UHGV virus genome: UHGV-0369712
DNA: 37,622 nucleotides
Source of the DNA: a virus
Reading direction: 5' to 3' (one strand)
A program made the position numbers and the translations under genes. Each line of letters opens with the position of its first letter. Position 1 is the first letter of the stretch. The notes under the pieces are model-generated. The model saw only the letters and a program-made list of their open reading frames with translations, did not search any database and was not told the origin of the DNA. Shown one piece after another: positions 1,213 through 29,152 of this stretch.

Positions 1213-1560
1213 TTACTTATCACATAAATCAAATGCAGCCTTAGTGACATCCCCCAGACTCTTTTTTAACCCTGGGGCGGCATCATTATCTAGCCAAAAT
1301 GGATTATTGTTATCTAACGGTAACGCACCAAATGTTTTACCTTTTATTCGAGCCAAACCTGTAAGTGCATATAACTTATTATCGTCAAAATTCATCACAT
1401 AAGGATTACCATCAAGACACTGTAATTGAACCTCATCAGTATTAAATGGCCATACCCCATTAAAACTCTCACGTTCAATAGTTTTAAAAGGCATTGCGAC
1501 GGCGGAAAAAGAAAACATAGATAAAAAAGTAACTAATAGTTGAACATTTTTTACTTTCAT
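1213..1560 (-). CDS. small secreted protein (N-terminal signal peptide, two Cys), function unknown; lysogen-side accessory gene
   Basis: 115 aa; hydrophobic N-terminus MKVKNVQLLVTFLSMFSFSAVA followed by a polar mature domain; 6 bp upstream of int on the same strand; AT-rich compared with the phage core. Confidence 0.6.
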   Translation of the reverse strand: MKVKNVQLLVTFLSMFSFSAVAMPFKTIERESFNGVWPFNTDEVQLQCLDGNPYVMNFDDNKLYALTGLARIKGKTFGALPLDNNNPFWLDNDAAPGLKKSLGDVTKAAFDLCDK

Positions 1561-1589
1561 ATCATTACCTCAATTTAGCTCAAGTAAGA

Positions 1590-2240
1590 TTACAAATTAA
1601 AAAACGCCCTAGAAATGACACCGCCTACCAAAACCCCTACGCAGATAAAGAATATTATTTCTTTTGGATAAAGTCGGATTAATTCTGAAGCACGAAGTCG
1701 GACTTCTGGTAAGGTCGAACTCTCTGTGTGGCTTGATGCCGATTGTTGCTCTAACCACGACAATGCAGACTGTAACTGAGAACGAGTAAGATCGTTTAAA
1801 CGTCCTGTACCGAAATTGATATGGCAATACCGCAGAAGTTTTTGTCGAAGTCCACAGTCTTCACTGTTACGTAGTAATAAACTTACAAGAGCCTTACAGG
1901 CATCATGATCTTTACATCGCTCAAGCATTGCATGCAGAAAACTCTCCGCTGTTTTATATTGATTTACTGTCATATCATCAATACCAGCTACACCAATCTC
2001 CGCATGTACTTTTTGCCAAATAATAAACGCTTCAGTATTGCTAGCTTCTGCAATAGCAGCAACCAAGCTATTTAGCTCCTTACGCTGAGCCTTAAGCAAA
2101 GGGCGATCGTCATCATCATTATTCGAAGGGATTGCGATATTGACGGTATGAGAACCATCATATCGCTCTATCTGAATATTCTTTTCGTGAAAATCACGCC
2201 CAGCAACGCGATTGTTTGAACCGTTTGAGTTGACGGCCAT
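1590..2240 (-). CDS. C-terminally membrane-anchored protein, function unknown (candidate superinfection-exclusion or abortive-infection factor)
   Basis: 216 aa; single C-terminal hydrophobic segment IIFFICVGVLVGGVI; N-terminus GSNNRVAGRDFHE repeats the motif at the C-terminus of the upstream repressor; co-oriented with repressor and int. Confidence 0.6.
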   Translation of the reverse strand: MAVNSNGSNNRVAGRDFHEKNIQIERYDGSHTVNIAIPSNNDDDDRPLLKAQRKELNSLVAAIAEASNTEAFIIWQKVHAEIGVAGIDDMTVNQYKTAESFLHAMLERCKDHDACKALVSLLLRNSEDCGLRQKLLRYCHINFGTGRLNDLTRSQLQSALSWLEQQSASSHTESSTLPEVRLRASELIRLYPKEIIFFICVGVLVGGVISRAFFNL

Positions 2241-5482: not shown

Positions 5483-5573
5483 GAAGCCAGAACATGCACA
5501 CACAAAAAAACCGCTTGCCATGCCGCAATCGGTCAGGTTACATTTCCGCTGCACCTCATAAAACGGGTGCCGG

Positions 5574-5798
5574 GATTCTCAACCCGATACAGAGCAAAGC
5601 GCATAACCGCGCCAGCGGTTTTTTTGTGCGTACTGTATTGCCACGTCTTTTTCGCGTCAGAATTATGGCGGGGCGTACGGGGCCGACTTCGGTCGGGCCG
5701 GATTCTTTGCTCTCCGGTGTTGAGAACCCTGTACGTCTCGCCACCCCGAGATTCTCAACTCTGGATGGTGAGCTATTTCTATCACCGAGCAAAGAGGC
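5574..5798 (+). promoter_or_regulatory. structured untranslated region: three copies of paired boxes (GATTCTCAAC / GAGCAAAG) in direct and inverted orientation around a terminator and the next gene's RBS
   Basis: Direct unit at 5574-5599, inverted unit at 5705-5726, direct unit at 5750-5794; the inverted unit can pair with either direct unit; the last box overlaps the Shine-Dalgarno (AAAGAGG, 5791-5797) of the ORF starting at 5805. Confidence 0.45.
5605..5627 (+). terminator. rho-independent terminator within the early operon
   Basis: AACCGCGCCAGCGGTTTTTTT: GC stem (CCGC/GCGG) followed by a T7 run. Confidence 0.6.
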
Positions 5799-6497: not shown

Positions 6498-9277
6498 ATG
6501 AGTTTGCATGGAGCTGGAATGAACCACGGCCAGCCATTGATCCGGCCAGATTTACGGAGCACAGGCAGGAAACTGAAACCGACCTGCAACGCGCCATCCG
6601 TTACTACCTTGAGGCAGACAAAAAGGCTCTGGAAGAACAGGAAGCGAAGGAGGAAGCCTTTTTCGCACAATCCACCGTGGGTAAAAAACTCATGGCATCC
6701 CTTGAGGAAGCCGGACAGCGTGAAAAGCTGGCACAAAGCATCATCAGCAAGCGTCAGGCAACAGAACAAGACCCGGTGGCCCGTGCTTTTGCCACACTGA
6801 AGGTGCTTCCCGTTTATCTGCGTGAACCTCTGAGCCGCCACCTCTCTTTCCTGCGCAAAAAACAGGAAGCCGATCGCCAGAAAGGCAAAAAGAGCTGGCA
6901 GGCTGAACGCTACGCGCGCGGAACCCTGCGCAAAATATTCGAACGTCTGGACCGCACCGATCACCGCTGGCTGACACCGGGTTATCGCTCCCTTGCCGGA
7001 CGCGAACGCCTGGACGATTTGCTTTACCTGCCGCAGCTCAACAAACACCAGATACAGACGCTGGCCACCATGACGGCGGCGATGTTCAGCAGCACCTTCG
7101 AAAAACTCTGCGATGGCTTTGGCGCGACTGATGGCGAACTGACCATGGATGTAACGCTGAAGGCGTATCAGATGCTGGCCCGCATGGCGTTACACCTGCA
7201 CGCCATGCCTCCACATTATGACGCACTGACAACAGACAAAGACCGGAGGAACGAACCGGACACGGAGCTGCTGCCGGGCGCAATCCTTCGCTTGACCTGT
7301 GCGGAATGGTGGAAACGCAAACTGTGGCTGTTACGTTGTGAGTGGCGGGAAGAACAACTCCGCGCCGCCTGTCTGATTTCCAGAAAAACATCCCCCTATC
7401 TGAGCCAGGACGCGTTAAGCGAGTTTCGCGCACAGCGCGAGAAAACACGCGATTTCCTGAAAAGTTTCATGCTGGAAAATGAAGACGGGTTCACGATTGA
7501 TCTCGAGACGGTGTATTACGCGGGAGTAAGTAACCCGGTTCACCGTAAGGCAGAAATGATGGCCACCATGAAGGGACTGGAACTTCTGGCCGAAGCCCGT
7601 GGCGACAGAGCGGTGTTTCTGACCGTCACCTGCCCGTCAAAATACCACGCAACAACGGAGAACGGTCATCCGAACCCCAAATGGAACGGGGCCACCATGC
7701 GCGACTCCAGCGATTACCTGGTTAACACGTTTTTTGCGGCGGTCCGCAAAAAACTGAACCGCGACGGCCTGCGCTGGTATGGCATCCGCACGGTGGAGCC
7801 TCACCATGACGGCACTGTGCACTGGCATATGATGGTCTTTGCACATCCGGACGAGATTGAAACCATCGTGTCCCACGTCTGCGATATTGCCATTCAGGAG
7901 GACCGCCACGAGCTGGGCGATGACATAACTCCGCGTTTTAAGGCGGAGTATGTCGACGGCTCAAAAGGCACACCAACCAGCTACATCGCCACCTACATCG
8001 GAAAGAACCTGGACAGCCGCGCCGTGGATGGCATCGACCCGAAAACGGGCAAGCCACGCGTTGACCACGAAACCGGAAAATCAATGGCCGAGAGCGTGGA
8101 GCGCGCCATCGGCTGGGCGCGCCTTCACCGGGTCCGTCAGTTCCAGTTCTTTGGCATCCCCTCCCGTCAGGTGTGGCGTGAACTGCGCCGCCTTGCCAGC
8201 CAGATGGCACGCAATCCGGAAGGCCCGCAACGGCTGAAAGATGATGCAATGGATGCGGTACTCGCTGCCGCCGATGCCGGGTGTTTTGCCACCTACATTG
8301 AAAAACAGGGTGGCGTACTTGTTCCACGCAAAGACTACCTGATTCGCACCGCCTACGACCTCGCAGATGAGCTGAACGATTACGGCGAACAGAGCGTACA
8401 GATTTACGGGATCTGGTCGCCACTCATCGGGGAATCCTCCCGTGTGTGCACGCATCCGGATAACTGGAAGCTGGTAAGACGTAAACCGGAAACGGAAGAC
8501 AGCGCCCGCGAAAATGGTTTTGACCTTCAGGGCGGCCCTGCCGCCCCTTGGACTCGTGGCAATAACTGTCCCCGTGTACAGGAAACGGACAACAACGGGA
8601 CAGAACAGCAGGAAGAACGGCCAGCACTGTGGCCGCAGCTTCCTGACGGCGTTGATGTGGATGAATGGATGCGCTCACTGAAACGGCACGAACGCCGGGC
8701 GCTGATGCGTTCGCTTCGTGACAAACAGGCAAAAAACAGCAGTGATGAAATGCAGAGCTGGACACAGAGCCGCAAACAGCAGCGGCCTTTGCCTGATAAC
8801 CACGAATTACTCGCTAAAGAATGGCGGGAATCTGCCGAATCTCTCGGCCTGCATATCGGTGAACAGCAGATGCAGCACCTGTTACGAGGCGGCAGTCTGT
8901 ACGTTGACGGCAGCATCATTGCACCGCAGGGATTTGAAATTGTACGCAAACCAGATACCCGACCGGACAGCCGAATCACGCAGCTCTGGCAGCGCCTGAG
9001 CCGTAATCACGGCGTAAACAGCACGGAAATCCGCCATAACCCGATTTCCAGCTATCTGAAACAGCTCGGGGCATCAGACCCTGAAGCCGCTGCACGCCTG
9101 GCATCCACAATTCAGCAGGACCAGAACACCATGAAAACTCCCGTTACCGTGCTTTCTGACATGCTGCGCGCCATCCGTGACGCAGAGCACGCACAGAGAA
9201 TCAATGAAACCACTGAACGCGCACGTCACAAGGCGGGTCTGTTGCAGGACAAAGGCAATAGCGAGAAGAAAAAATAA
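6494..9277 (+). CDS. A: rolling-circle replication initiator (P2 gpA-like HUH endonuclease) with a long C-terminal extension
   Basis: About 930 aa; HUH-type motif VHWHMMVFAH and tyrosine pair SYIATYIGK as in P2/186 A; ATG 6494 preferred over GTG 6467 because of the ATGA coupling; last ~250 aa are low-complexity and R/Q/E-rich. Confidence 0.8.
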   Translation: MNEFAWSWNEPRPAIDPARFTEHRQETETDLQRAIRYYLEADKKALEEQEAKEEAFFAQSTVGKKLMASLEEAGQREKLAQSIISKRQATEQDPVARAFATLKVLPVYLREPLSRHLSFLRKKQEADRQKGKKSWQAERYARGTLRKIFERLDRTDHRWLTPGYRSLAGRERLDDLLYLPQLNKHQIQTLATMTAAMFSSTFEKLCDGFGATDGELTMDVTLKAYQMLARMALHLHAMPPHYDALTTDKDRRNEPDTELLPGAILRLTCAEWWKRKLWLLRCEWREEQLRAACLISRKTSPYLSQDALSEFRAQREKTRDFLKSFMLENEDGFTIDLETVYYAGVSNPVHRKAEMMATMKGLELLAEARGDRAVFLTVTCPSKYHATTENGHPNPKWNGATMRDSSDYLVNTFFAAVRKKLNRDGLRWYGIRTVEPHHDGTVHWHMMVFAHPDEIETIVSHVCDIAIQEDRHELGDDITPRFKAEYVDGSKGTPTSYIATYIGKNLDSRAVDGIDPKTGKPRVDHETGKSMAESVERAIGWARLHRVRQFQFFGIPSRQVWRELRRLASQMARNPEGPQRLKDDAMDAVLAAADAGCFATYIEKQGGVLVPRKDYLIRTAYDLADELNDYGEQSVQIYGIWSPLIGESSRVCTHPDNWKLVRRKPETEDSARENGFDLQGGPAAPWTRGNNCPRVQETDNNGTEQQEERPALWPQLPDGVDVDEWMRSLKRHERRALMRSLRDKQAKNSSDEMQSWTQSRKQQRPLPDNHELLAKEWRESAESLGLHIGEQQMQHLLRGGSLYVDGSIIAPQGFEIVRKPDTRPDSRITQLWQRLSRNHGVNSTEIRHNPISSYLKQLGASDPEAAARLASTIQQDQNTMKTPVTVLSDMLRAIRDAEHAQRINETTERARHKAGLLQDKGNSEKKK

Positions 9278-9457
9278 CCAAGAAAGAAATCATCAATTGT
9301 ATGAAGGTAGAGTTTAGACATGGTAAGGACGTTCCATGAGGCACACTGTAATTTCATATAGTATTCCTCTTCCCTGTTTGATAAAAAAGTGCAATACTAT
9401 AAATAGTCCAGTTAAATGCTTTTTCAATTCACTTAAAATCAAGAGGTTACAGTTAAG

Positions 9458-10579
9458 ATGGGCGACTTAGGTGGTATTCAGTCAGATTTAGCCCAACTAG
9501 TTAGACTGGTAATAACTGAACAGTATGATGACGTTCGGTTATATGTCGCTCGCTTGGTGCGTAAATATCGGGAAACTATGCCTGCTCTATCCGAGCAGCT
9601 TGATCTTTATCTACGAAATAAACCGCAAAAGCCTGCACAAAGCCTGCGTAAGGTTACCGCACCAAAACAAGCGCTGCCTCAAACCATGCCTGTGGACGAG
9701 GAGTCAAGGCTTACCTTGCTTAAAGCACCAAATGAAAAGATTGTGAGCAAACCTCTACTGTCCAGTCAGATAGAAGACTCACTGGATCAAATTATTCTTG
9801 AGCGGAAGCACATCGATCGCCTCAAGACTCTCGGCTTACAACCAACACGCTCTGCCATTTTTGTTGGCCCTCCGGGTGTAGGTAAAACACTTACGGCAAG
9901 CTGGTTAGCTCAGAAATTAGGGGTTCCTTTTTACGTTCTTGATTTAACGGCAGTAATGAGCAGCTATCTGGGCAAAAGCGGAAATAACCTTCGGGCAGCT
10001 TTAGATTTTGCGAAGAAAGGGCCGTGCGTTCTTCTGTTAGATGAAATTGATTCAATCGCCAAAAAGAGAAGTGATGATTCTGATGTTGGAGAATTAAAAA
10101 GACTTGTTACCGTGATACTCCAGGAGGTTGACGAATGGCCGTCTTCTAGTTTGCTACTTGCTGCAACTAACTTCGCTGAGTTGATTGATCCAGCACTATG
10201 GAGACGTTTTGATTTAGTGCTCAATTTTGAGAAGCCAGATAGCGAAAGTATTAAAGAAGCAATTAAACGCTTTTCAGGTCCCGACTACGCGATTTTTGCA
10301 CGTTGGATAGATCTACTGGCTATTATGTTCAAAAATGAATCTTTTAGTAATATTGAGCGTTCTATCAACAAATTCCGACGTTCGGTCGCTTTAGGTATTT
10401 CCTCAGATGAAGAGTTGATTGGGTCGTTCATTAAAGATGGTTTATCAGAATTAGACAGGAATGAACGTAAAGAAATTGCAGTTACTCTAAAAAGAAATTC
10501 TAAATTATCCCAGCATGCCATATCAGACTTAACCGGAGTCAGTAGGGATACAATTAGAAAATACAGTCAAAAAATGTAA
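9458..10579 (+). CDS. AAA+ ATPase (classical AAA clade), IetA-like candidate defence ATPase
   Basis: 373 aa; Walker A GPPGVGKT, Walker B VLLLDEID, sensor-1 ATN, arginine-finger region WRRFD; C-terminal HTH-like tail; AT-rich gene in the slot between A and the cos/Q region. Confidence 0.8.
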   Translation: MGDLGGIQSDLAQLVRLVITEQYDDVRLYVARLVRKYRETMPALSEQLDLYLRNKPQKPAQSLRKVTAPKQALPQTMPVDEESRLTLLKAPNEKIVSKPLLSSQIEDSLDQIILERKHIDRLKTLGLQPTRSAIFVGPPGVGKTLTASWLAQKLGVPFYVLDLTAVMSSYLGKSGNNLRAALDFAKKGPCVLLLDEIDSIAKKRSDDSDVGELKRLVTVILQEVDEWPSSSLLLAATNFAELIDPALWRRFDLVLNFEKPDSESIKEAIKRFSGPDYAIFARWIDLLAIMFKNESFSNIERSINKFRRSVALGISSDEELIGSFIKDGLSELDRNERKEIAVTLKRNSKLSQHAISDLTGVSRDTIRKYSQKM

Positions 10580-10602
10580 TACAGCATAGATAAGGAGTAT
10601 GT

Positions 10603-12828
10603 ATGGCGAAAACTAATTTTCTGATTGGACGCGGCGAATTATTAACCAGCGATATTCCTGGTCCTAAAAGAGTGCCCGGAAAAGCTGAGGTTTATTCTCT
10701 TTACGAATCGAAACAACGTTTATTGCCGCAAATTGCATCTACTATAGAAAATTTTGATGATTTACCCAGTCAGGCATGTCCTTATGATTATGCTGTGGCT
10801 AAGTTGACGTTGAATCCGAGCTATATTGCACGCTCTTTTTTTCCTGCAAAAATGCTTAAGTCTACCGGGTTAACGTCTATTGGCAGCAGGACGGTAAAAA
10901 TTACGCCTCAAAGCTGGAAGCGAAAAGTTACTGTGTCAGAAGTAACTACGACACAAATGTTTGTTGCTGGTAAAAGAGAATCCTTCAAAGAGTTACCTCA
11001 TTGGGTGTCAGGACTCAAAGAGTTTTCTGACGAAGCGATTGATTTTGCACGCATAGAACGGTTCGATGCCTATTTACCCGAAGAGCGTATTATTACCATT
11101 GGTGAGCAGGATTCTTCGTATTTTGAGGTTGGTGTTCATTTACTGCCAGATAATGAACAAGACTTGGTTCAGCAACAATTTGTTCAGTTTGCATCAAATT
11201 TGAACATCAAAGTACATACTTCATTAGCTTTTACCGCTGGTACATTATGGTTCGTGCCAATCCAGGCCGATAGAATTACTATTAGTAAGCTTGCGAAATT
11301 TACATTTGTACGAGTAATAAGACCGGTTCCAAGATTGCGTGGGATTAGACCAATACAAAGGAACTACGGTCCTTTAGCTCAGTGTAAATTGCCTGCTGAG
11401 GGCCCCGTATCTTCAGAAATAAAAGTTGCGATTCTTGATGGCGGTTTACCATCAGAGCACGCTATATCGCCATGGTTAAAATCCTATAGAGTTTTGGACG
11501 ATCATGCAGAGGATGATCCAGACGGTTTAGAGCATGGTTTAGCTGTGTCTTCAGCCTTTTTATTTGGACCAATAAGTAATAAATCGGAAGCGAAAAGACC
11601 ATACTCTTATATTGATAACTTAAGAGTTTTGGACAACAAGACCTGCCAAGAAGATCCGCTGGAACTATATCGAACTTTGGGCTTTATTGAAGAGGTATTG
11701 TTGTCTCGCCAGTATCAGTTTATCAATCTAAGTTTAGGTCCAGACCTACCAATTGAAGATACGGAAGTTCATGCATGGACTTCCGTTATTGATGATTTGT
11801 TAAGTGATGGTGAAACATTAATGACTGTTGCTGTTGGCAACAATGGAGAAATGGATCGCAAGTCTGGTAATGCAAGAATTCAAGTACCAGCCGATTGCGT
11901 TAATGCTCTTGCTGTTGGTGCTTGTGATACAGTTAATGATACGGAATGGAAACGAGCACCATATAGCGCCATTGGGCCAGGCAGAAGTCCTGGCGTGATG
12001 AAACCGGATTTAGTTGCGTTTGGTGGTGACACAGACGAGTACTTTCATGTCTTAGGTAAAGGTAAGAAGCCTGTAATCATACCCCAGCTAGGAACAAGCT
12101 TTGCCTCTCCTTACGCCTTACGAGCAGCTGTTGGTGTTCGGGCAATTTTAGGGAACGATTTGAGCCTACTAGCAATCAAAGCTTTGTTAATTCATGCGTC
12201 AAAACAGCTTGATCATCCTTGTATAGAAGTTGGCTGGGGAAAACTTCCTGAAGACTTGAACGACATTATAGTCAGCCCTGATGGTGTTGCCCGTATCGTC
12301 TACCAAGGTGAATTGAAACCAGGAAAATACTTACGCGCTCCTCTTCCAATACCTGAAGGTGGCTTGAAAGGTAGAATAAACTTAGCGGCAACTTTCTGTT
12401 ATGCAACAACCACTGATCCACAAGACCCAGCTTCCTATACAAAAGCTGGTTTGGAAGTGACATTCCGGCCAAATGATTCAAAAATCAAAGACGGAAAACA
12501 AAATGCTGAAACCAAGGGATTCTTTGAACTGGCCAAATATTCAACTGAAAGTGAGCGACGTTCTGACATGGGCAAATGGGAGACCGTCTTACATAATTCG
12601 AAGAACATGCTAGGTTCAACTCTAAAAAATCCTGTATTTGACATTCATTATAACGCTCGTGAGGCCGGTGCAAGCATAGCCAGCCATAAGGCAGAAAAAA
12701 TCAAGTATGCTCTTATAATTACCATTAAGGCATCAAAGCACCAAGACCTGTATAACGAAATTTTACGTACTTATAATCAGGTGCTCGTGCCAATTCAACC
12801 GCAAACATCAATTCCTATTCGTTCGTAA
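10603..12828 (+). CDS. subtilisin-like serine peptidase (S8 family), IetS-like
   Basis: 741 aa; catalytic triad motifs in order D (VAILDGG), H (LEHGLAVSS), S (GTSFASP), plus oxyanion AVGNNGE; 23 bp downstream of the ATPase with its own RBS. Confidence 0.8.
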   Translation: MAKTNFLIGRGELLTSDIPGPKRVPGKAEVYSLYESKQRLLPQIASTIENFDDLPSQACPYDYAVAKLTLNPSYIARSFFPAKMLKSTGLTSIGSRTVKITPQSWKRKVTVSEVTTTQMFVAGKRESFKELPHWVSGLKEFSDEAIDFARIERFDAYLPEERIITIGEQDSSYFEVGVHLLPDNEQDLVQQQFVQFASNLNIKVHTSLAFTAGTLWFVPIQADRITISKLAKFTFVRVIRPVPRLRGIRPIQRNYGPLAQCKLPAEGPVSSEIKVAILDGGLPSEHAISPWLKSYRVLDDHAEDDPDGLEHGLAVSSAFLFGPISNKSEAKRPYSYIDNLRVLDNKTCQEDPLELYRTLGFIEEVLLSRQYQFINLSLGPDLPIEDTEVHAWTSVIDDLLSDGETLMTVAVGNNGEMDRKSGNARIQVPADCVNALAVGACDTVNDTEWKRAPYSAIGPGRSPGVMKPDLVAFGGDTDEYFHVLGKGKKPVIIPQLGTSFASPYALRAAVGVRAILGNDLSLLAIKALLIHASKQLDHPCIEVGWGKLPEDLNDIIVSPDGVARIVYQGELKPGKYLRAPLPIPEGGLKGRINLAATFCYATTTDPQDPASYTKAGLEVTFRPNDSKIKDGKQNAETKGFFELAKYSTESERRSDMGKWETVLHNSKNMLGSTLKNPVFDIHYNAREAGASIASHKAEKIKYALIITIKASKHQDLYNEILRTYNQVLVPIQPQTSIPIRS

Positions 12829-12842
12829 TCCTTCAAGACATA

Positions 12843-12872
12843 ATGCCCCTCAATTTGAGGGGCATTTCTTTG
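12843..12872 (+). terminator. rho-independent terminator after the ATPase/protease cassette
   Basis: ATGCCCCTCAATTTGAGGGGCAT hairpin followed by a T-rich tract, immediately after the S8 stop. Confidence 0.65.
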
Positions 12873-12897
12873 CACAAAAGTGCACAAATTTGCACAA
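12871..12897. repeat. three direct TGCACAA repeats at exact 10-bp phasing (candidate protein-binding array near the presumed cos/packaging region)
   Basis: TGCACAAAAG TGCACAAATT TGCACAATTT at 12871, 12881 and 12891; lies in the non-coding region between the cassette and Q. Confidence 0.4.
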
Positions 12898-13320
12898 TTT
12901 TTTTGAACGACTTTTTGCCCTTCCGGCCCGCATGGCGGCTGGATCGGTCAAGGATCCGTGCGTGCACAAAAAAACGCGCTTTTTCTGCGCGCAGGTGACG
13001 GGGGAACAGCCCGCGTTTCAGGGGGTAAATAGCATTCCCTGAACGATGTCGCAGAGATACAACAGAATGGCTGTATTTCTCACGCTGAGCGTGAAAAAGA
13101 CGTGAGGGCTTTTGATTTATGGGGTGAAAGGTAAGGCCGTCAAAATCGCACTGAGACGGCGAGAACATGCAGTCAACGCGGTGGGATTGCGTAAGAGTCT
13201 GACTGTCGATGGTGGCGATAAACTGGAAGGCGTCGTGAAATTATCTGACTGATACAGGAGCTGGAGAGTCGGGGCATAAATTTTTTATGCCCCGGCGAAG
13301 CAGCAGACAAGCGAAGCGCG

Positions 13321-14367
13321 TCAGGATGTGGGCTGGGTGTCTAACAGTGCGTAAGGGTTAAAGCGGATCACCTCTTCGCCAAGCCAGTCATTGATGTGCT
13401 TCATGGCCTCCATGACAGGCATCAGCTCGTTAATTGCGTAAACCCGCGCGGCCTTCTCCACATCACCAAACGCACTTTTTTCGCCCGGCATCGCCCCCAT
13501 CAGTTGCGGCGGAACGCGGTGCGCAGCCAGCACATCATCACGGGATGCCGCCTTAACATTCATGAACTCATCCTTTGCGGTGATCTGCTGGAACGGCAAA
13601 ATTTGCACCCCCTCTTTGCCCCCGTTGGGAGCATGGATGAGCACGTTTTTAAACGCACCACCACCACGCGCACCCTGTAACGTTTCTTTCAGGGAGCCCA
13701 TGCTTTCGCGGTTTACCTGCGCTGCACCAATGTAGATGATGCACCCGGCGTGGGAGCCGTTGTCGTAGTACAGTTTTCTGAACATGTCCGCCGAATGAGA
13801 AAGGCTGGCCGAGAGTAATGCGCCAAGATATTCCGGCATGCCGTAGATTTCCTGATTAATATCCGGATTCATCAGATGGCACACTTTACCAGGGCGAAAC
13901 TCAAACGCGTCCTTGCCATCCTGCACATACCACCATGATTCAAGATCGCTTCCGCGTCGCATGTATTTCGCCAGTGCGTGCCGTAATTTAAGCGGTTCGC
14001 CGAGCATATTGCTTCGAAGCTCAAGGAATGCGTTACCGAACACAAACCAGTCCAGCGCCAGCGCCGAGAAATCCTGCCGGGAAAGCAGCGGGTGCGGGAT
14101 GTAGCAACCGAGCAATACATTGCGCTTAAAGTAAAGCGCAGACTGATGCCAGGACGTTTGCCGGGCGGCTCTTGCCAGACCGTACCAGTCCACCGGGGTT
14201 TCGTACCACCGCCCGTTATCAGCACAGTACATATTGTCCAGCAGGTCATGCCCGGTCAGGCGGTAAGGACCATCAAATGTGAATGCACTGAGCGACGATT
14301 CTTTCCTGAGCGCATCAGCAAGCTCAATGCGTGTACTCATGCGCACTTTTTTATTTTTTCTGCTCAT
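13321..14367 (-). CDS. Q: portal protein (P2 gpQ-like)
   Basis: 348 aa, about the size of P2 Q (344 aa) and at the Q position; start overlaps the P stop (ATGA), giving a P-Q operon as in P2. Confidence 0.85.
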   Translation of the reverse strand: MSRKNKKVRMSTRIELADALRKESSLSAFTFDGPYRLTGHDLLDNMYCADNGRWYETPVDWYGLARAARQTSWHQSALYFKRNVLLGCYIPHPLLSRQDFSALALDWFVFGNAFLELRSNMLGEPLKLRHALAKYMRRGSDLESWWYVQDGKDAFEFRPGKVCHLMNPDINQEIYGMPEYLGALLSASLSHSADMFRKLYYDNGSHAGCIIYIGAAQVNRESMGSLKETLQGARGGGAFKNVLIHAPNGGKEGVQILPFQQITAKDEFMNVKAASRDDVLAAHRVPPQLMGAMPGEKSAFGDVEKAARVYAINELMPVMEAMKHINDWLGEEVIRFNPYALLDTQPTS

Positions 14368-24530: not shown

Positions 24531-26681
24531 ATGAGTACCACAACACGAAAATTTAAAACCGTTATCACCGATACGGGTGCAAAAAAATTAGCTCAGGCAG
24601 CCGCGCCAGATGGTAAGCCCGTCCGCCTGACTCATATGGCCGTGGGCGACGGTGGCGGCACGTTGCCCACACCAGACAGTAAGCAGACCCGTCTGGTGCA
24701 TGAGGTGTGGCGACACACTGTTAATCGCGTCATCCTGGACGCAACACATCAGAACCGCATTATTGCGGAGCTGGTTATTCCTCCTGAAACGGGCGGATTC
24801 TGGATCCGGGAAATTGGTGTGTTTGATGAGCACGGCGATTTAATCGCGGTGGGCAATACTGCCGAAAGTTACAAGCCAACTGTTGCCGAAGGGTCCGGAC
24901 GTGCACAAACATTTCGCACCATTCTGACCGTATCCAGCACAGCCACCGTAGCGCTTACCGTGGATAGCACCATGGTGATGGCCACAGTGGATTACGTGGA
25001 TGACAAACTGAAAGAGCATGAACAGTCACGACGTCACCCGGACGCCTCGCTGACCGCAAAAGGCTTTGTTCAACTCAGTAGCGCCACTAACAGCGTGTCT
25101 GAAACGCAGGCTGCAACGCCGAAAGCAGTAAAGGCAGCGTATGACCTTGCTAACGGTAAATATACTGCGCAGGATGCCAGCACGACGCGAAAAGGCCTTG
25201 TCCAGCTCAGTAGCGCCACCAACAGCACGTCTGAAACGCAGGCTGCAACGCCGAAAGCAGTAAAGGCCGCGTATGACCTTGCTAACGCAAAATATACCGC
25301 TCAGGACGCCACGACGGCACAAAAAGGGATAGTCCAGCTCAGTAGTGCCACCAACAGCACGTCTGAAACACTGGCCGCGACATCGAAAGCGGTTAAGGCG
25401 GTAATGGATGAAACGAACAAGAAAGCGCCCTTAAACAGTCCTGCGCTGACCGGAACGCCAACAACACCAACTGCGCGACAGGGAACGAATAATACCCAAA
25501 TCGCAAACACGGCTTTCGTTATGGCTGCGATTGCCGCCCTTGTAGATTCGTCACCTGATGCACTGAACACGCTGAACGAGCTGGCGGCGGCGTTGGGCAA
25601 CGACCCGAATTTTGCGACCACCATGACTAACGCGCTTGCGGGTAAGCAACCGAAAGATGCCACCCTGACGGCGCTGGCCGGGCTTGCTACTGCGGCAGAC
25701 AGGTTTCCGTATTTTACGGGGAATGATGTCGCCAGCCTGGCAACTCTGACAAAAGTCGGGCGGGATATTCTTGCGAAATCGACCGTTGCCGCCGTTATCG
25801 AATACCTCGGTTTACAGGAAACGGTAAACAGGGCTGGTAACGCCGTGCAAAAAAATGGCGATACCTTGTCCGGTGGGCTTACTTTTGAAAATGACTCAAT
25901 CCTTGCCTGGATTCGAAATACTGACTGGGCGAAGATTGGATTTAAAAATGATGCTGATGGTGACACTGATTCATACATGTGGTTTGAAACAGGCGACAAC
26001 GGCAATGAATATTTCAAATGGAGAAGCCGCCAGAGCACCACAACAAAAGACCTGATGACGCTGAAATGGGATGCACTAAATATTCTGGTAAATGCCGTCA
26101 TTAATGGCAGTCTTGGAGTTGGTACGACGAATGCGTTAGGTGGTAGCTCTATTGTTCTTGGTGATAATGACACCGGATTCAAACAGAATGGTGATGGTAT
26201 TCTGGATGTTTACGCTAATAGTCAGCGAGTATTCCGCTTTCAGAATGGAGTTGCTATTGCTTTTAAAAACATTCAGGCAGGTGATAGTAAAAAGTTCTCG
26301 CTATCCAGCTCCAACACCTCCACAAAGAATGCAACGTTTAATTTATGGGGTGCTTCAACCCGTCCAGTAGTTGCAGAGTTAGGCGATGAGGCAGGATGGC
26401 ATTTCTATAGCCAGCGAAATACAGATAACTCGGTAATATTTTCTGTTAACGGTCAGATACAGCCCAGCAACTGGGGGAATTTTGATTCACGCTATGTAAA
26501 AGATGTTCGCCTGGGTACGCGTGTTGTTCAATTGATGGCGCGTGGTGGTCGTTATGAAAAAGCCGGACACGCAATTACCGGATTAAGAATCATTGGTGAA
26601 GTAGATGGCGATGATGAAGCCATCTTCAGACCAATACAAAAATACATCAATGGCACATGGTATAACGTCGCACAGGTATAA
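24531..26681 (+). CDS. H: tail fibre protein (P2 gpH-like); C-terminal part lies inside the invertible segment
   Basis: 716 aa, very similar throughout to P2 H as I recall it (N-terminus KFKTVITDTGAKKLAQAAAP..., C-terminus RPIQKYINGTWYNVAQV); contains tandem 44-aa repeats and a gix-like site. Confidence 0.9.
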   Translation: MSTTTRKFKTVITDTGAKKLAQAAAPDGKPVRLTHMAVGDGGGTLPTPDSKQTRLVHEVWRHTVNRVILDATHQNRIIAELVIPPETGGFWIREIGVFDEHGDLIAVGNTAESYKPTVAEGSGRAQTFRTILTVSSTATVALTVDSTMVMATVDYVDDKLKEHEQSRRHPDASLTAKGFVQLSSATNSVSETQAATPKAVKAAYDLANGKYTAQDASTTRKGLVQLSSATNSTSETQAATPKAVKAAYDLANAKYTAQDATTAQKGIVQLSSATNSTSETLAATSKAVKAVMDETNKKAPLNSPALTGTPTTPTARQGTNNTQIANTAFVMAAIAALVDSSPDALNTLNELAAALGNDPNFATTMTNALAGKQPKDATLTALAGLATAADRFPYFTGNDVASLATLTKVGRDILAKSTVAAVIEYLGLQETVNRAGNAVQKNGDTLSGGLTFENDSILAWIRNTDWAKIGFKNDADGDTDSYMWFETGDNGNEYFKWRSRQSTTTKDLMTLKWDALNILVNAVINGSLGVGTTNALGGSSIVLGDNDTGFKQNGDGILDVYANSQRVFRFQNGVAIAFKNIQAGDSKKFSLSSSNTSTKNATFNLWGASTRPVVAELGDEAGWHFYSQRNTDNSVIFSVNGQIQPSNWGNFDSRYVKDVRLGTRVVQLMARGGRYEKAGHAITGLRIIGEVDGDDEAIFRPIQKYINGTWYNVAQV
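25056..25420 (+). repeat. about 2.75 tandem copies of a 132-bp (44-aa) in-frame repeat within H
   Basis: KG[FLI]VQLSSATNS[VT]SET[QL]AAT[PS]KAVKA... repeated with a 132-bp period (units near 25062, 25194, 25326). Confidence 0.8.
25794..25819. other. gix/hix-like recombination site 1 (left inverted repeat of the invertible tail-fibre segment), inside H
   Basis: TTATCGAATACCTCGGTTTACAGGAA; 22/26 match to the reverse complement of site 2; close to the Mu gix consensus TTATCCAAAACCTCGGTTTACAGGAA as I recall it. Confidence 0.7.
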
Positions 26682-26684
26682 ATT

Positions 26685-27212
26685 ATGCAGCATTTAAAAA
26701 ATATTAAGTCCGGAAATCCAAAAACAAAAGAACAATATCAGCTAACAAAGAATTTTGATGTTATCTGGTTATGGTCCGAAGACGGTAAAAACTGGTATGA
26801 GGAAGTAAATAACTTTCAGGACGACACCATAAAGATTGTATACGACGAAAATAATATTATTGTTGCCATAACCAAAGATGCCTCAACGCTTAATCCCGAA
26901 GGCTTTAGTGTCGTTGAGATTCCCGATATAACAGCCAATCGTCGTGCCGATGATTCAGGGAAGTGGATGTTTAAGGACGGAGCTGTGGTTAAGCGGATTT
27001 ATACAGCAGACGAACAGCAACAACAGGCCGAATCACAAAAGGTCGCGTTGCTTTCTGAAGCTGAAAGCGTTATTCAGCCACTGGAACGCGCTGTCAGGCT
27101 GAATATGGCGACGGATGAGGAACGCACACGACTGGAGTCATGGGAACGCTACAGCGTTCTGGTCAGCCGTGTGGATACAGCAAATCCCGAATGGCCACAA
27201 AAGCCTGAGTAA
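26685..27212 (+). CDS. G: tail fibre assembly chaperone (P2 gpG-like)
   Basis: 175 aa; [40 protein letters not shown] closely resembles P2 G. Confidence 0.9.
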
Positions 27213-27240
27213 AAATTAAGGCCCAATATCGGGCCTTCCC

Positions 27241-27774
27241 TCATTCTGGTTGTTCGGGAAACGTTACTGGCAGGCTGGAGGTGTCTGTAGATTCGACTTT
27301 CTGCGCATAGAGCATCCACTCGGTTAATTTTTGTTTATTCTCGTCGGAAATGATGCCCAGCCGTAGCTGTGAGTCCCATAGCTGGGTTTTATCCCTGACA
27401 AGTTGCAACAGGCTTTGCTTTTCATTTTCCGCTTGTTGCCTCTGCTCTTCCTCGGTATAAGTTCGCTTTATCACTACGCCATCTTTGAACAACCATTTCC
27501 CCGAAATATCAGCCCGGCGATTTGCTGTAATATCAGGTAATTCAACGACGCTTGCGCCTTCCGGATTAATTGCTGAAACATCCTTTTCAATACAAATAAT
27601 AACGCCGTTATGGTCATAGACCATTTTCAAAGTGTCTGGCTGGAAATTCTTTTGTTCCTCATACCAGTTTTTTCCATCATCTGAATAAAGCCATTTGATG
27701 TTAAATTGCTTTGTTAGCTGGTATTGCTCTTTTGTTTTAGGGTTGCCAGTAGTAATGTTTTTTAAGTGCATCAT
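27241..27774 (-). CDS. alternative tail fibre assembly chaperone (G')
   Basis: 177 aa; N-terminal half paralogous to G ([23 protein letters not shown]...), C-terminus divergent; inverted relative to G. Confidence 0.8.
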   Translation of the reverse strand: MMHLKNITTGNPKTKEQYQLTKQFNIKWLYSDDGKNWYEEQKNFQPDTLKMVYDHNGVIICIEKDVSAINPEGASVVELPDITANRRADISGKWLFKDGVVIKRTYTEEEQRQQAENEKQSLLQLVRDKTQLWDSQLRLGIISDENKQKLTEWMLYAQKVESTDTSSLPVTFPEQPE

Positions 27775-27776
27775 CG

Positions 27777-28490
27777 TTAAATACTCCCCGCGTTATACCA
27801 CGTCCCATTAATGCAATACTGAATTGGCCTTGCCTGAGTTGTATCAATTAATTCATCACGGTTTCCGTTAACTGAACCCGTAACGACATAACCTGACCTG
27901 TCAGACCAGCCGGGACCATTCCATGTCTGAACAGATGACAGACCGCCAAGGCGAATACCTGTAATAAACCTTGAGTTACATTCTGCCTGCGTGTATGCAC
28001 CAACATCTCCCGCAGAGGGTTTGCGGGTCGTGGTGTAAAACTCTGACCAGTCGGCTTCAAAACCATAACCATCACGGGCTGAACGATAAAAAATACCGCC
28101 ATTTTTATAATTAATCCGAAACTGAGCTGCAGGACAACTTCCTTCTCCCATATAAAAATGAATAATTAACGTTGATGCACCACTAATAGTTGCGTTATAG
28201 GCTCCGCTACTCCAGTTCCATCCAACTGCTTTATCATTCGCAACGGTGCTTCCTGTTTTCCCTAAGGCAAACGCACCAACATGACTTGCTTTTAATGTGA
28301 TATCGGAGGAACCATCAAAAGCCACATTGCTTATTTTCCTGGCAGTTTTTAATTTTGCAGCTGTAGAAGCATTGCCGGATAGTTCACCAGAAAGGCCACC
28401 GCTGAATGTTTGTCGATTAGTCCAGGTATTCGCTGTACTGAGTAACGGTATTTTCTCCCCGCTTGTGCCGAGTTCTCGTAAACCGAGGTT
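27777..28490 (-). CDS. promoterless alternative tail-fibre C-terminal cassette (Hv')
   Basis: Minus-strand frame open from 28490 with no canonical start; C-terminus RPIQYCINGTWYNAGSI parallels the H C-terminus; its 5' end carries gix-like site 2 in the same codon phase (L-G-L) as site 1 in H. Confidence 0.75.
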   Translation of the reverse strand, partial: NLGLRELGTSGEKIPLLSTANTWTNRQTFSGGLSGELSGNASTAAKLKTARKISNVAFDGSSDITLKASHVGAFALGKTGSTVANDKAVGWNWSSGAYNATISGASTLIIHFYMGEGSCPAAQFRINYKNGGIFYRSARDGYGFEADWSEFYTTTRKPSAGDVGAYTQAECNSRFITGIRLGGLSSVQTWNGPGWSDRSGYVVTGSVNGNRDELIDTTQARPIQYCINGTWYNAGSI

Positions 28491-28498
28491 TTAGATAA
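28473..28498. other. gix/hix-like recombination site 2 (right inverted repeat)
   Basis: TTCTCGTAAACCGAGGTTTTAGATAA; inverted relative to site 1; about 35-60 bp upstream of the invertase gene. Confidence 0.7.
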
Positions 28499-28534
28499 TG
28501 GCCGTTTCTGACCTGCATGGCATGATTTACGCTT

Positions 28535-29152
28535 TTGGACGGGAGATTCAGCGTGCTGATTGGCTATGTAAGGGTATCAACAAATGACCAGAATACAGAC
28601 CTGCAACGAAACGCTCTTGTTTGTGCAGGATGTGAACAAATATTTGAAGATAAATTAAGCGGGACAAAGACAGACCGACCGGGATTAAAACGCGCTTTAA
28701 AGCGCCTTCAAAAAGGTGACACGCTGGTTGTCTGGAAACTGGATCGCCTCGGGCGAAGCATGAAACATCTGATTTCTCTCGTCGGGGAACTACGGGAGCG
28801 AGGGATTAATTTTCGCAGTCTGACCGACAGCATAGATACATCTTCTCCAATGGGGCGTTTTTTCTTCCACGTGATGGGTGCCCTGGCTGAAATGGAACGT
28901 GAATTAATTGTTGAACGTACACTGGCCGGACTGGCGGCAGCGCGTGCACGGGGGCGCACAGGCGGACGTCGACCGAAGCTGACAAAAGAACAGCATGAGC
29001 AAATAGCAAGGCTGATCAAAAACGGGCACGACAGAAAACAACTGGCAATAATTTACGGCATTGGCATATCGACGATTTATCGTTATCACCCTGTAGGCGA
29101 TATACAGGCTGAAGAAACAACCAGGCAGACTCAGGAAAATGAAAACCGCTAA
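28535..29152 (+). CDS. serine DNA invertase, Gin/Cin/Pin/Hin family
   Basis: ...LIGYVRVSTNDQNTDLQRNALVCAGCEQIFEDKLSGT...GRRPKLT... is nearly identical in its N-terminal two-thirds to Mu Gin as I recall it (catalytic Ser in VRVST); C-terminal HTH; true start may be GTG 28556 (MLIGY...) rather than ATG 28535. Confidence 0.9.
   Translation: MDGRFSVLIGYVRVSTNDQNTDLQRNALVCAGCEQIFEDKLSGTKTDRPGLKRALKRLQKGDTLVVWKLDRLGRSMKHLISLVGELRERGINFRSLTDSIDTSSPMGRFFFHVMGALAEMERELIVERTLAGLAAARARGRTGGRRPKLTKEQHEQIARLIKNGHDRKQLAIIYGIGISTIYRYHPVGDIQAEETTRQTQENENR

Follow-up and report, generated by a model that had tools for sequence, protein, structure and literature searches.

A probable IetAS-type defence cassette as exchangeable cargo of the P2 gpA-gpQ hotspot in an Escherichia coli prophage

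The virus genome UHGV-0369712, analysed here over its whole length of 37,622 nucleotides (nts; the window), carries a two-gene insert of low guanine plus cytosine (GC) content between the replication gene A and the portal gene, i.e., in the place where phage P2 carries old and tin. What does this insert encode, and does it belong to the phage or is it cargo? An initial annotation, made from the sequence, had proposed a candidate anti-phage system of the IetAS type, consisting of an AAA ATPase and an S8 family protease. The profile, structure and locus comparisons described below make it very probable that the cassette is an IetAS-type two-gene module of the toxin-antitoxin/abortive-infection kind, which serves in defence and occupies the P2 gpA-gpQ hotspot as exchangeable cargo.

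Identity and boundaries of the cassette

The definition of IetAS used by PADLOC and DefenseFinder asks for adjacent and co-oriented genes whose products match the IetA and IetS profiles. The first gene product (IetA) matches the PADLOC profile PDLC02196 at 1e-77, with residues 9-372 of 373 aligned to profile positions 5-370 of 374, and three other PADLOC IetA profiles at 2e-72 to 7e-41. The second gene product (IetS) matches PDLC02197 at 1.1e-51 (residues 36-726 on profile positions 38-733 of 749), as well as six other PADLOC IetS profiles. The two genes lie on the same strand, separated by 23 nts, and both the ATPase motifs and the S8 triad with its oxyanion Asn, which an IetAS requires, are intact. 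Among the NCBIfam models, IteA (NF042959) and IteS (NF042956) are the best and only specific matches. The two-gene IetAS architecture proposed initially is thus recovered over the full length of both proteins, and the Pfam and PADLOC searches suggested with it returned all four expected families (AAA, Peptidase_S8, IetA and IetS).

The pair resembles the IetAS system (Gao et al., 2020) that PADLOC/DefenseFinder call 'ietAS' and NCBIfam IteA/IteS: an AAA+ ATPase is followed by an S8 protease of ~740 amino acids (aa), with profile matches over the full length. Furthermore, the whole architecture of IetA, including a C-terminal helix-turn-helix (HTH), aligns with the IteA model (residues 56-365 on positions 50-366 of 367).

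The cassette has been reported before. In Rousset et al. (2022; PMC9122126), Table S5A has the exact pair WP_000502620 + WP_001140702 among the P2 hotspot entries as 'AAA/HTH_50 + Peptidase_S8', and Table S5B gives the name 'ietAS (Gao et al, 2020)' to a Peptidase_S8 + AAA system that ranks seventh in frequency among the cargoes (400 occurrences). In addition, Table S1 of Wu et al. gives a PADLOC call 'ietAS' at NC_017641.1 1028717-1032087; this record (E. coli UMNK88) contains a 99.8%-identical copy of the cassette at 1028673-1032265, and the called span of 3371 bp has the same length as the distance from the ietA start to the ietS stop in the window. Therefore, the cassette is a catalogued instance of IetAS in a catalogued P2 hotspot, and the detail added here is the domain anatomy of IetA and, with lower confidence, of IetS. 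According to Wu et al., ietAS of E. coli tends to occur in prophages. The ECOR52 ietAS cloned by these authors was considered as the same allele and rejected, as neither of its primers matches the window; since it is another allele, the function of the present pair is assigned by homology transfer.

The cassette is composed of the following elements:

9249-12863, no strand assigned: variable cargo segment of the gpA-gpQ hotspot, comprising the complete IetAS module and its regulatory ends
9345-9410, + strand: conserved upstream block, candidate promoter/operator
9458-10579, + strand: ietA, 373 aa, classical-clade AAA+ ATPase, putative antitoxin-type component
10592-10597, + strand: ribosome-binding site of ietS, AAGGAG, read directly from the sequence
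10603-12828, + strand: ietS, 741 aa, S8 subtilase, putative toxin-type component
12842-12872, + strand: intrinsic terminator of the ietAS operon

In the region 9001-13000 the GC content is 0.38-0.46, vs 0.55-0.59 in either flank. When the window is aligned to phage P88, with which it shares a backbone of 96% identity, homology ends at 9248 and restarts at 12864, so that the swapped segment is 9249-12863. The ribosome-binding site of ietS lies 5 nts ahead of its ATG, and directly past its stop codon a GC-rich hairpin of 11 bp (12842-12866) is followed by TTTCTTT (UUUCUUU in the RNA); its folding free energy is -19.4 kcal/mol (z = -4.9), and none of 200 shuffled sequences folds as well. Hence the cassette is an operon with its own terminator. 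Overall, the initial annotation had described an AT-rich two-gene operon at 9280-12872 ending in a terminator, and composition, boundaries (nearly exactly those defined by P88) and terminator all bear this out.

The E. coli prophage that makes up the window belongs to the P2 family and is integrated beside yecA/tyrP, and its closest sequenced phage backbone is that of P88 (Peduoviridae, Xuanwuvirus). In E. coli strain O18, which contains an identical prophage copy, the RefSeq order is integrase, HTH repressor, early genes, replication endonuclease, WP_000502620.1, WP_001140702.1, portal, terminase, GPO scaffold and P2-family capsid, the two proteins of the cassette being labelled 'AAA family ATPase' and 'S8 family peptidase'. 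In the window, 9277 is the last position of the replication endonuclease gene (gpA), and the portal gene (gpQ) occupies 13321-14367 on the - strand, followed by terminase, scaffold and capsid; the cassette lies between them, in the tin/old accessory slot as initially stated. It shares with old and tin of P2 both this gpA-gpQ slot and the predicted role, namely to exclude other phages by means of prophage genes. The two P2 proteins, Old (an ATPase-nuclease) and Tin (directed against the single-stranded DNA-binding protein of T-even phages), are unrelated to IetA and IetS. The interval is a published anti-phage hotspot with experimental support, in which about one quarter of P2-like phages have a partition system (Rousset et al., 2022; PMC9122126), and a 2026 preprint confirms it as a defence hotspot. 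Indeed, the same slot is occupied by ParM/partition genes in P88 and 520873, and in P88 also by small genes.

Between the cassette and the portal gene, the stretch 12864-13320 is free of open reading frames (ORFs), apart from a probably spurious one of 111 aa on the - strand (12833-13168). It is 93-97% conserved in many P88-like phages, and some phage records begin at or close to it, which fits a cos region. A search with a 19-nt sequence for the cohesive ends of P2 gave no match within 3 mismatches; P88-like phages may differ in this sequence, or the query may deviate from the P2 ends. Two hairpins are found at 12974-12992 and ~13270-13297, the latter being probably the terminator of the portal gene.

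Anatomy of IetA, IetS and the upstream DNA

IetA matches Pfam AAA (PF00004) at 2.6e-30 over residues 134-258, and the three motifs from which a classical AAA ATPase had been recognised are found at residues 137-144 (GPPGVGKT), 192-198 (LLLDEID) and 248-252 (WRRFD). The Walker A K143, Walker B D195/E196, sensor-1 N238 and the Arg fingers R249/R250 are all present, and in 91 diverse IetA representatives of 34-56% identity, which also keep the complete architecture of the protein, these motifs show either no variation or a conservation of at least 90%. The AlphaFold model of IetA has a mean predicted local distance difference test (pLDDT) score of 74.6 and consists of four parts, namely an N-terminal three-helix domain (residues 3-53), a disordered linker (55-100), the large and small AAA subdomains, and a helical C-terminal extension ending in the HTH. 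The isolated N-domain gave no match in a Pfam search at E up to 10. The linker contains the motif PVDEESRLTLLK at residues 78-89, conserved among the 91 representatives as P-V-D-x-[DE]-[ST]-R-L-x-L-L.

The AAA module (~103-312) has its nearest solved relatives in Cdc48/p97/VAT, FtsH and the proteasomal Rpt subunits, by both sequence and fold searches. It can be aligned with Cdc48/VAT including the pore loop (SYLGK, 169-173); on the other hand, IetA differs from unfoldases of the Cdc48/VAT/FtsH type in having a single AAA module combined with an HTH, and its protease partner is a separate polypeptide of another catalytic class than FtsH or Lon. Pore-loop-1 reads Ser-Ser-[Tyr 38 / Phe 28 / Leu 17]-Leu-Gly in the 91 representatives, with an aromatic residue at the variable position in 66 of them, the following Leu in 89 and the Gly in 90. 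Such a canonical pore loop suggests that IetA may act on a protein substrate by threading or remodelling it. As for the HTH-like tail noted initially, Pfam gives only weak matches to HTH_11/HTH_23 (E ~1e-3, residues 339-369), yet it is a strongly conserved feature of the family: the HTH at ~350-370 carries the signature SQR....TGVSRDTIRK, with R363 in 88/91 and T365 in 85/91 representatives.

The second gene was correctly read as a 741-aa S8 protease with an intact D/H/S triad and large extensions. Pfam Peptidase_S8 (PF00082) matches IetS at 7.3e-19 over residues 271-546, leaving 270 aa on the N-terminal and 195 aa on the C-terminal side. The motifs VAILDGG (275-281), HGLAVSS (311-317) and GTSFASP (497-503) are in place together with the oxyanion motif VGNNG (411-415), and 30 homologues of 65-92% identity all retain D279, H311, N413/N414 and S499. 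The Asp, His and Asn align to D32, H64 and N155 of subtilisin, while GTSFASP falls inside the Pfam S8 match. A sequence search of solved structures found none like IetS beyond a marginal match to the generic subtilisin core.

The protein can be divided into an N-region (1-270), the catalytic domain (271-546) and a C-terminal domain (547-741). In the N-region, two ferredoxin-like, prodomain-like modules precede a conserved junction, RVIRPVPRLRG (237-247), whose pattern RV[VI]RP[VM]PxLR is conserved even across IetAS subfamilies. This region is the least conserved part of IetS, with a mean identity to the window protein of 53-63% in 29 aligned homologues, vs 75-76% for the rest. In the AlphaFold model, confidence is high for residues 30-240 (blocks of 85-95) and moderate for residues ~560-720. 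The best Foldseek matches are to pro-Tk-SP including its propeptide (3e-7) and to tandem ACT/ferredoxin-like domains; the PCSK9 prodomain and jelly-roll/GOLD domains are also matched by fold. The most economical reading of the model, held with lower confidence, is that IetS may be a pro-subtilase in which an S8 core is placed between a prodomain-like N-region and a beta-sandwich C-domain. In the model, this domain order would mirror that of pro-Tk-SP and other pro-subtilases with a C-terminal beta-jelly-roll (Tk-SP, KP-43); IetS differs from the pro-Tk-SP type by an extra N-terminal module and by the lack of detectable sequence similarity outside the S8 core.

Ahead of ietA, a block located ~55-115 nts upstream of the gene is conserved in five enterobacterial variants of the cassette. 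It contains an inverted repeat with arms of 15 nts at 9357-9371 and 9387-9401 (87% complementary), whose perfect core is TATAGTATT / AATACTATA. The arms are kept in all five variants, while the spacer, including a putative -35 element, is variable. The repeat resembles an operator and would be a candidate binding site for the HTH of IetA. A sigma-70-like match at 9378-9407 also lies inside the block.

Distribution, exchange and prophage context

Of 5426 complete E. coli genomes, 44 contain the cassette, in 42 cases as a full-length copy with at least 99.5% identity. Since the flanking backbone is matched by 1421 E. coli records, only 44 of which carry the cassette, the latter is an accessory element. 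An 85%-identical variant is found in the same slot of a different P2-like prophage of E. coli, and the gpA-portal slot of Salmonella, Serratia and Klebsiella prophages contains variants at 95/92%, 84% and 73% (IetA) identity. The comparison of this slot among related prophages, proposed at the outset, thus reveals other cargo in P88 and 520873 and the same cassette in these three genera. A 70% variant is located in a non-phage integrase island of Salmonella; a link to SgiAT of SGI1 through this homologue was considered and rejected, the locus being a different integrase island. Overall, relatives of IetS at 65-77% identity are spread across gamma- and beta-proteobacteria. Gene order and short gap are kept in the related loci L002-L016, and in L017 no ietS gene is called.

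When divergent P2-like prophages are compared, the cassette (9279/9340 to ~13020) is 84-86% identical and the backbone 70-73% identical or unalignable. Horizontal exchange of the cassette among these prophages via the hotspot is shown by the fact that the cassette is more conserved than its neighbouring backbone. A modular swap in which a conserved IetA would be combined with diverging IetS proteins was considered and rejected: the paired genes of L002-L004 give 93-95% identity for IetA and 92% for IetS, and the apparent asymmetry in the match lists (IetA 93-95% vs IetS 92/85/77%) is an artefact of clustering at 90%.

The same subfamily is found in a P2-like prophage of the beta-proteobacterium Laribacter hongkongensis (L013/L014, 6001-9377; 65% IetA identity). 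This copy lies between the tail gene gpD and the repressor/ogr region, i.e., outside the gpA-gpQ slot, so that the association with the P2 family reaches beyond this slot. Three copies of the cassette are either damaged or have insertion sequences next to them. In the records NZ_CP169013.1, NZ_CP077596.1, NZ_CM143910.1 and NZ_CP077515.1, such changes comprise IS1203 beside the cassette, ISKpn26 inside ietS, and a truncated ietS. These disrupted, truncated or flanked copies suggest occasional inactivation of the protease gene.

The window contains other features. In the early operon, two gathering-level Rfam matches lie side by side on the + strand, the Hfq-binding small RNA isrK at 5551-5625 (62.8 bits) and the C4 antisense RNA at 5661-5748 (78.5 bits), in a stretch left unannotated by RefSeq in the identical prophage. 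The pair resembles an immunity/antirepressor RNA module of the P1 c4/ant or IsrK type in a P2-family prophage. Further downstream, 24531-29152 is an invertible host-range segment, partly of low GC content (0.40-0.44). On the + strand it has one gene for a tail fibre and one for tail-fibre assembly; the - strand carries an alternative assembly gene (27241-27774) as well as a gp37_C tail-fibre end (27777-28325). Next to these comes a resolvase-family DNA invertase (28535-29152). Finally, two low-GC genes at 1213-2240 (- strand), between the integrase and a CI-like HTH repressor, encode a DUF2511 protein (115 aa) and a 216-aa protein for which neither Pfam nor PADLOC gave a match; this is a second accessory slot, possibly with uncharacterised cargo.

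Possible modes of action

Several observations weigh against the assignment to IetAS and the function that would follow from it. Both proteins score far below the NCBIfam equivalog cut-offs (IetA 223.3 vs 510 bits, IetS 135.9 vs 900), which places them in another subfamily than IteA/IteS. Their identity to the IetAS ranked seventh in the hotspot by Rousset et al. is only 43% for IetA and 33% for IetS (residues 1-398), and the present pair is listed separately in Table S5A. In the literature on the present subfamily we found no direct phage-challenge or toxicity experiment. As to the proteins, Leu replaces the pore-loop aromatic in 17/91 IetA representatives, and the N- and C-terminal extensions of IetS, searched alone against Pfam at E up to 10, gave no match. 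The AlphaFold model of IetS, obtained with 30 homologues, is poor (pLDDT 54.5), its S8 core being unfolded at ~25-30, and the prodomain and beta-sandwich calls rest on moderate scores for small domains. Of the AT-rich promoter initially ascribed to the cassette, the match at 9378-9407 remains, but the promoter scan of the region returned 7 sigma-70-like matches vs 7.8 expected from shuffles, which is not above chance, and the -35 hexamer of this match is not conserved among related cassettes; as the promoter of the cassette it is only plausible. Finally, the idea that IetA inhibits rather than activates IetS comes, by analogy, from homologues.

On the other side, the IetA of the IetAS ranked seventh by Rousset et al. 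likewise misses the IteA cut-off (253 vs 510 bits), so that this cut-off marks one narrow subfamily and not the system type. The two systems also share the hotspot, the gene pair, the host species, the linker MPVD..SR..LL and the junction RV[VI]RP.P.LR. By these sequence comparisons, the cassette is placed in a distinct IetAS subfamily.

What IetAS systems do is described for several homologues. SgiAT of SGI1 (S025/S026) stabilises the island, and in E. coli its protease is toxic within 30 minutes while the ATPase counteracts this effect. IetAS of pTiC58 is reported to have been described first as a plasmid-stability toxin-antitoxin system; both pTiC58 IetAS and SgiAT resemble the present pair as serine-protease toxins with AAA-ATPase antitoxins on mobile elements, and differ from it in having been studied for plasmid or island stability and not for phage defence. 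The genes of these systems are co-transcribed, and their spacing is short, 20 bp in SGI1 compared with 23 bp in the window. The ietAS of Bacillus cereus behaves as an abortive system that becomes toxic once the SPbeta yosG product is expressed, and other IetAS systems protect against phages when cloned. Finally, in the three-gene system ietHAS (Liu-DS4), which has IetA and IetS components in common with the present cassette and includes an SNF2 helicase, defence requires the protease activity, and ietA active-site mutants could not be cloned; the present cassette, by contrast, has only two genes between gpA and cos/portal and no helicase gene. The 2026 work on ietHAS states the mechanism of IetAS as unknown. 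The initial suggestion of an abortive-infection or protein-cleavage effector agrees, by analogy, with this published work on other IetAS systems.

Combined with the anatomy described above, these data can be assembled in a model which, as a whole, we regard as tentative and rather less probable than an even chance. IetS would be a subtilase of the zymogen type, with its active site gated by the prodomain-like N-region, and IetA a hexameric Cdc48-like unfoldase with the conserved Ser-Ser-[Tyr/Phe/Leu]-Leu-Gly pore loop. By spending ATP, IetA would hold or remodel IetS and keep it inactive, docking possibly via the conserved linker motif, while its HTH would repress the operon at the conserved inverted repeat. 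A phage product that disables or titrates IetA would then free IetS to cleave essential proteins and abort the infection, which would protect the lysogen population and the prophage.

The stability phenotypes also suit a different primary role, in which the cassette would act chiefly by addiction (post-segregational killing) and so maintain the prophage, or an episomal form, with defence secondary or absent. The plasmid-stability function of pTiC58 IetAS and the stabilisation of SGI1 by SgiAT point in this direction, and so do the maintenance functions hosted by the same slot (ParM/partition in P88 and 520873, and a partition system in ~1/4 of P2-like phages). However, other IetAS systems protect against phages when cloned, the locus is an experimentally supported defence hotspot, and an integrated prophage gains little from addiction of the plasmid type. 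We therefore think a primarily addictive role improbable, though still worth serious consideration; addiction and defence are not mutually exclusive.

The kinship of IetA with threading and protease-coupled unfoldases (Cdc48/VAT, FtsH, Rpt) and its canonical pore loop would also be expected if IetA and IetS formed a true ATP-dependent protease like FtsH, Lon or the proteasome, in which IetA threads phage or host proteins into IetS for direct degradation without suicide of the cell. The requirement of ietHAS for protease activity and its uncloneable ietA active-site mutants, which point to IetA being essential too, are also in line with such a machine. On the other hand, S8 subtilases have open active sites and are normally not chambered, and the model of IetS, itself poor, contains no ring-forming element. 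Moreover, a homologous IetS is rapidly toxic alone and counteracted by IetA, and the B. cereus system is abortive and toxic upon expression of its trigger. Such a degradation machine is unlikely.

The prodomain-like N-region of IetS and the RV[VI]RP[VM]PxLR junction conserved between subfamilies could also be taken to mean that IetA is an activator, which senses the phage by its N-domain or HTH and pulls out or unfolds the N-region to generate the active protease; indeed, AAA unfoldases can strip inhibitory domains. The genetics of the homologues is the opposite: the protease is toxic without the ATPase and neutralised by it, and no active-site mutants of ietA could be cloned. An activating IetA is therefore more doubtful still. 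Finally, a conserved morphogenesis or housekeeping module, such as a head-maturation protease with its chaperone, against which the initial annotation had set its proposal, is suggested by the adjoining packaging and head genes and is highly improbable, considering that only 44 of the 1421 flank-sharing records carry the cassette and P88, 520873 and others lack it, that a P2-type scaffold/protease gpO is present separately, that composition and junctions are those of foreign cargo, and that the family also occurs outside phages.

Returning to the preferred reading of an IetAS-type defence module in which IetA restrains IetS, the window adds little as a discovery, as the system type, the locus and the very protein pair are already published. 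Its value is practical: it provides a compact, prophage-borne E. coli allele with defined regulatory ends for a system that is mechanistically unsolved, and the pore loop, the linker motif, the HTH, the prodomain-like region and the operator-like repeat are specific residues and DNA sites to mutate. The P2-borne AAA/HTH + S8 subfamily may differ functionally from the IetAS systems tested so far and may reveal an undescribed principle of control, which we put forward as a speculation that will probably not hold in full. A Cdc48-like unfoldase would serve as an ATP-consuming antitoxin that continuously blocks the maturation of a pro-subtilase, docking on it by the P-V-D-x-[DE]-[ST]-R-L-x-L-L motif and reporting to its own promoter through the HTH. 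If this were true, any phage product that stalls the unfoldase would release the protease.

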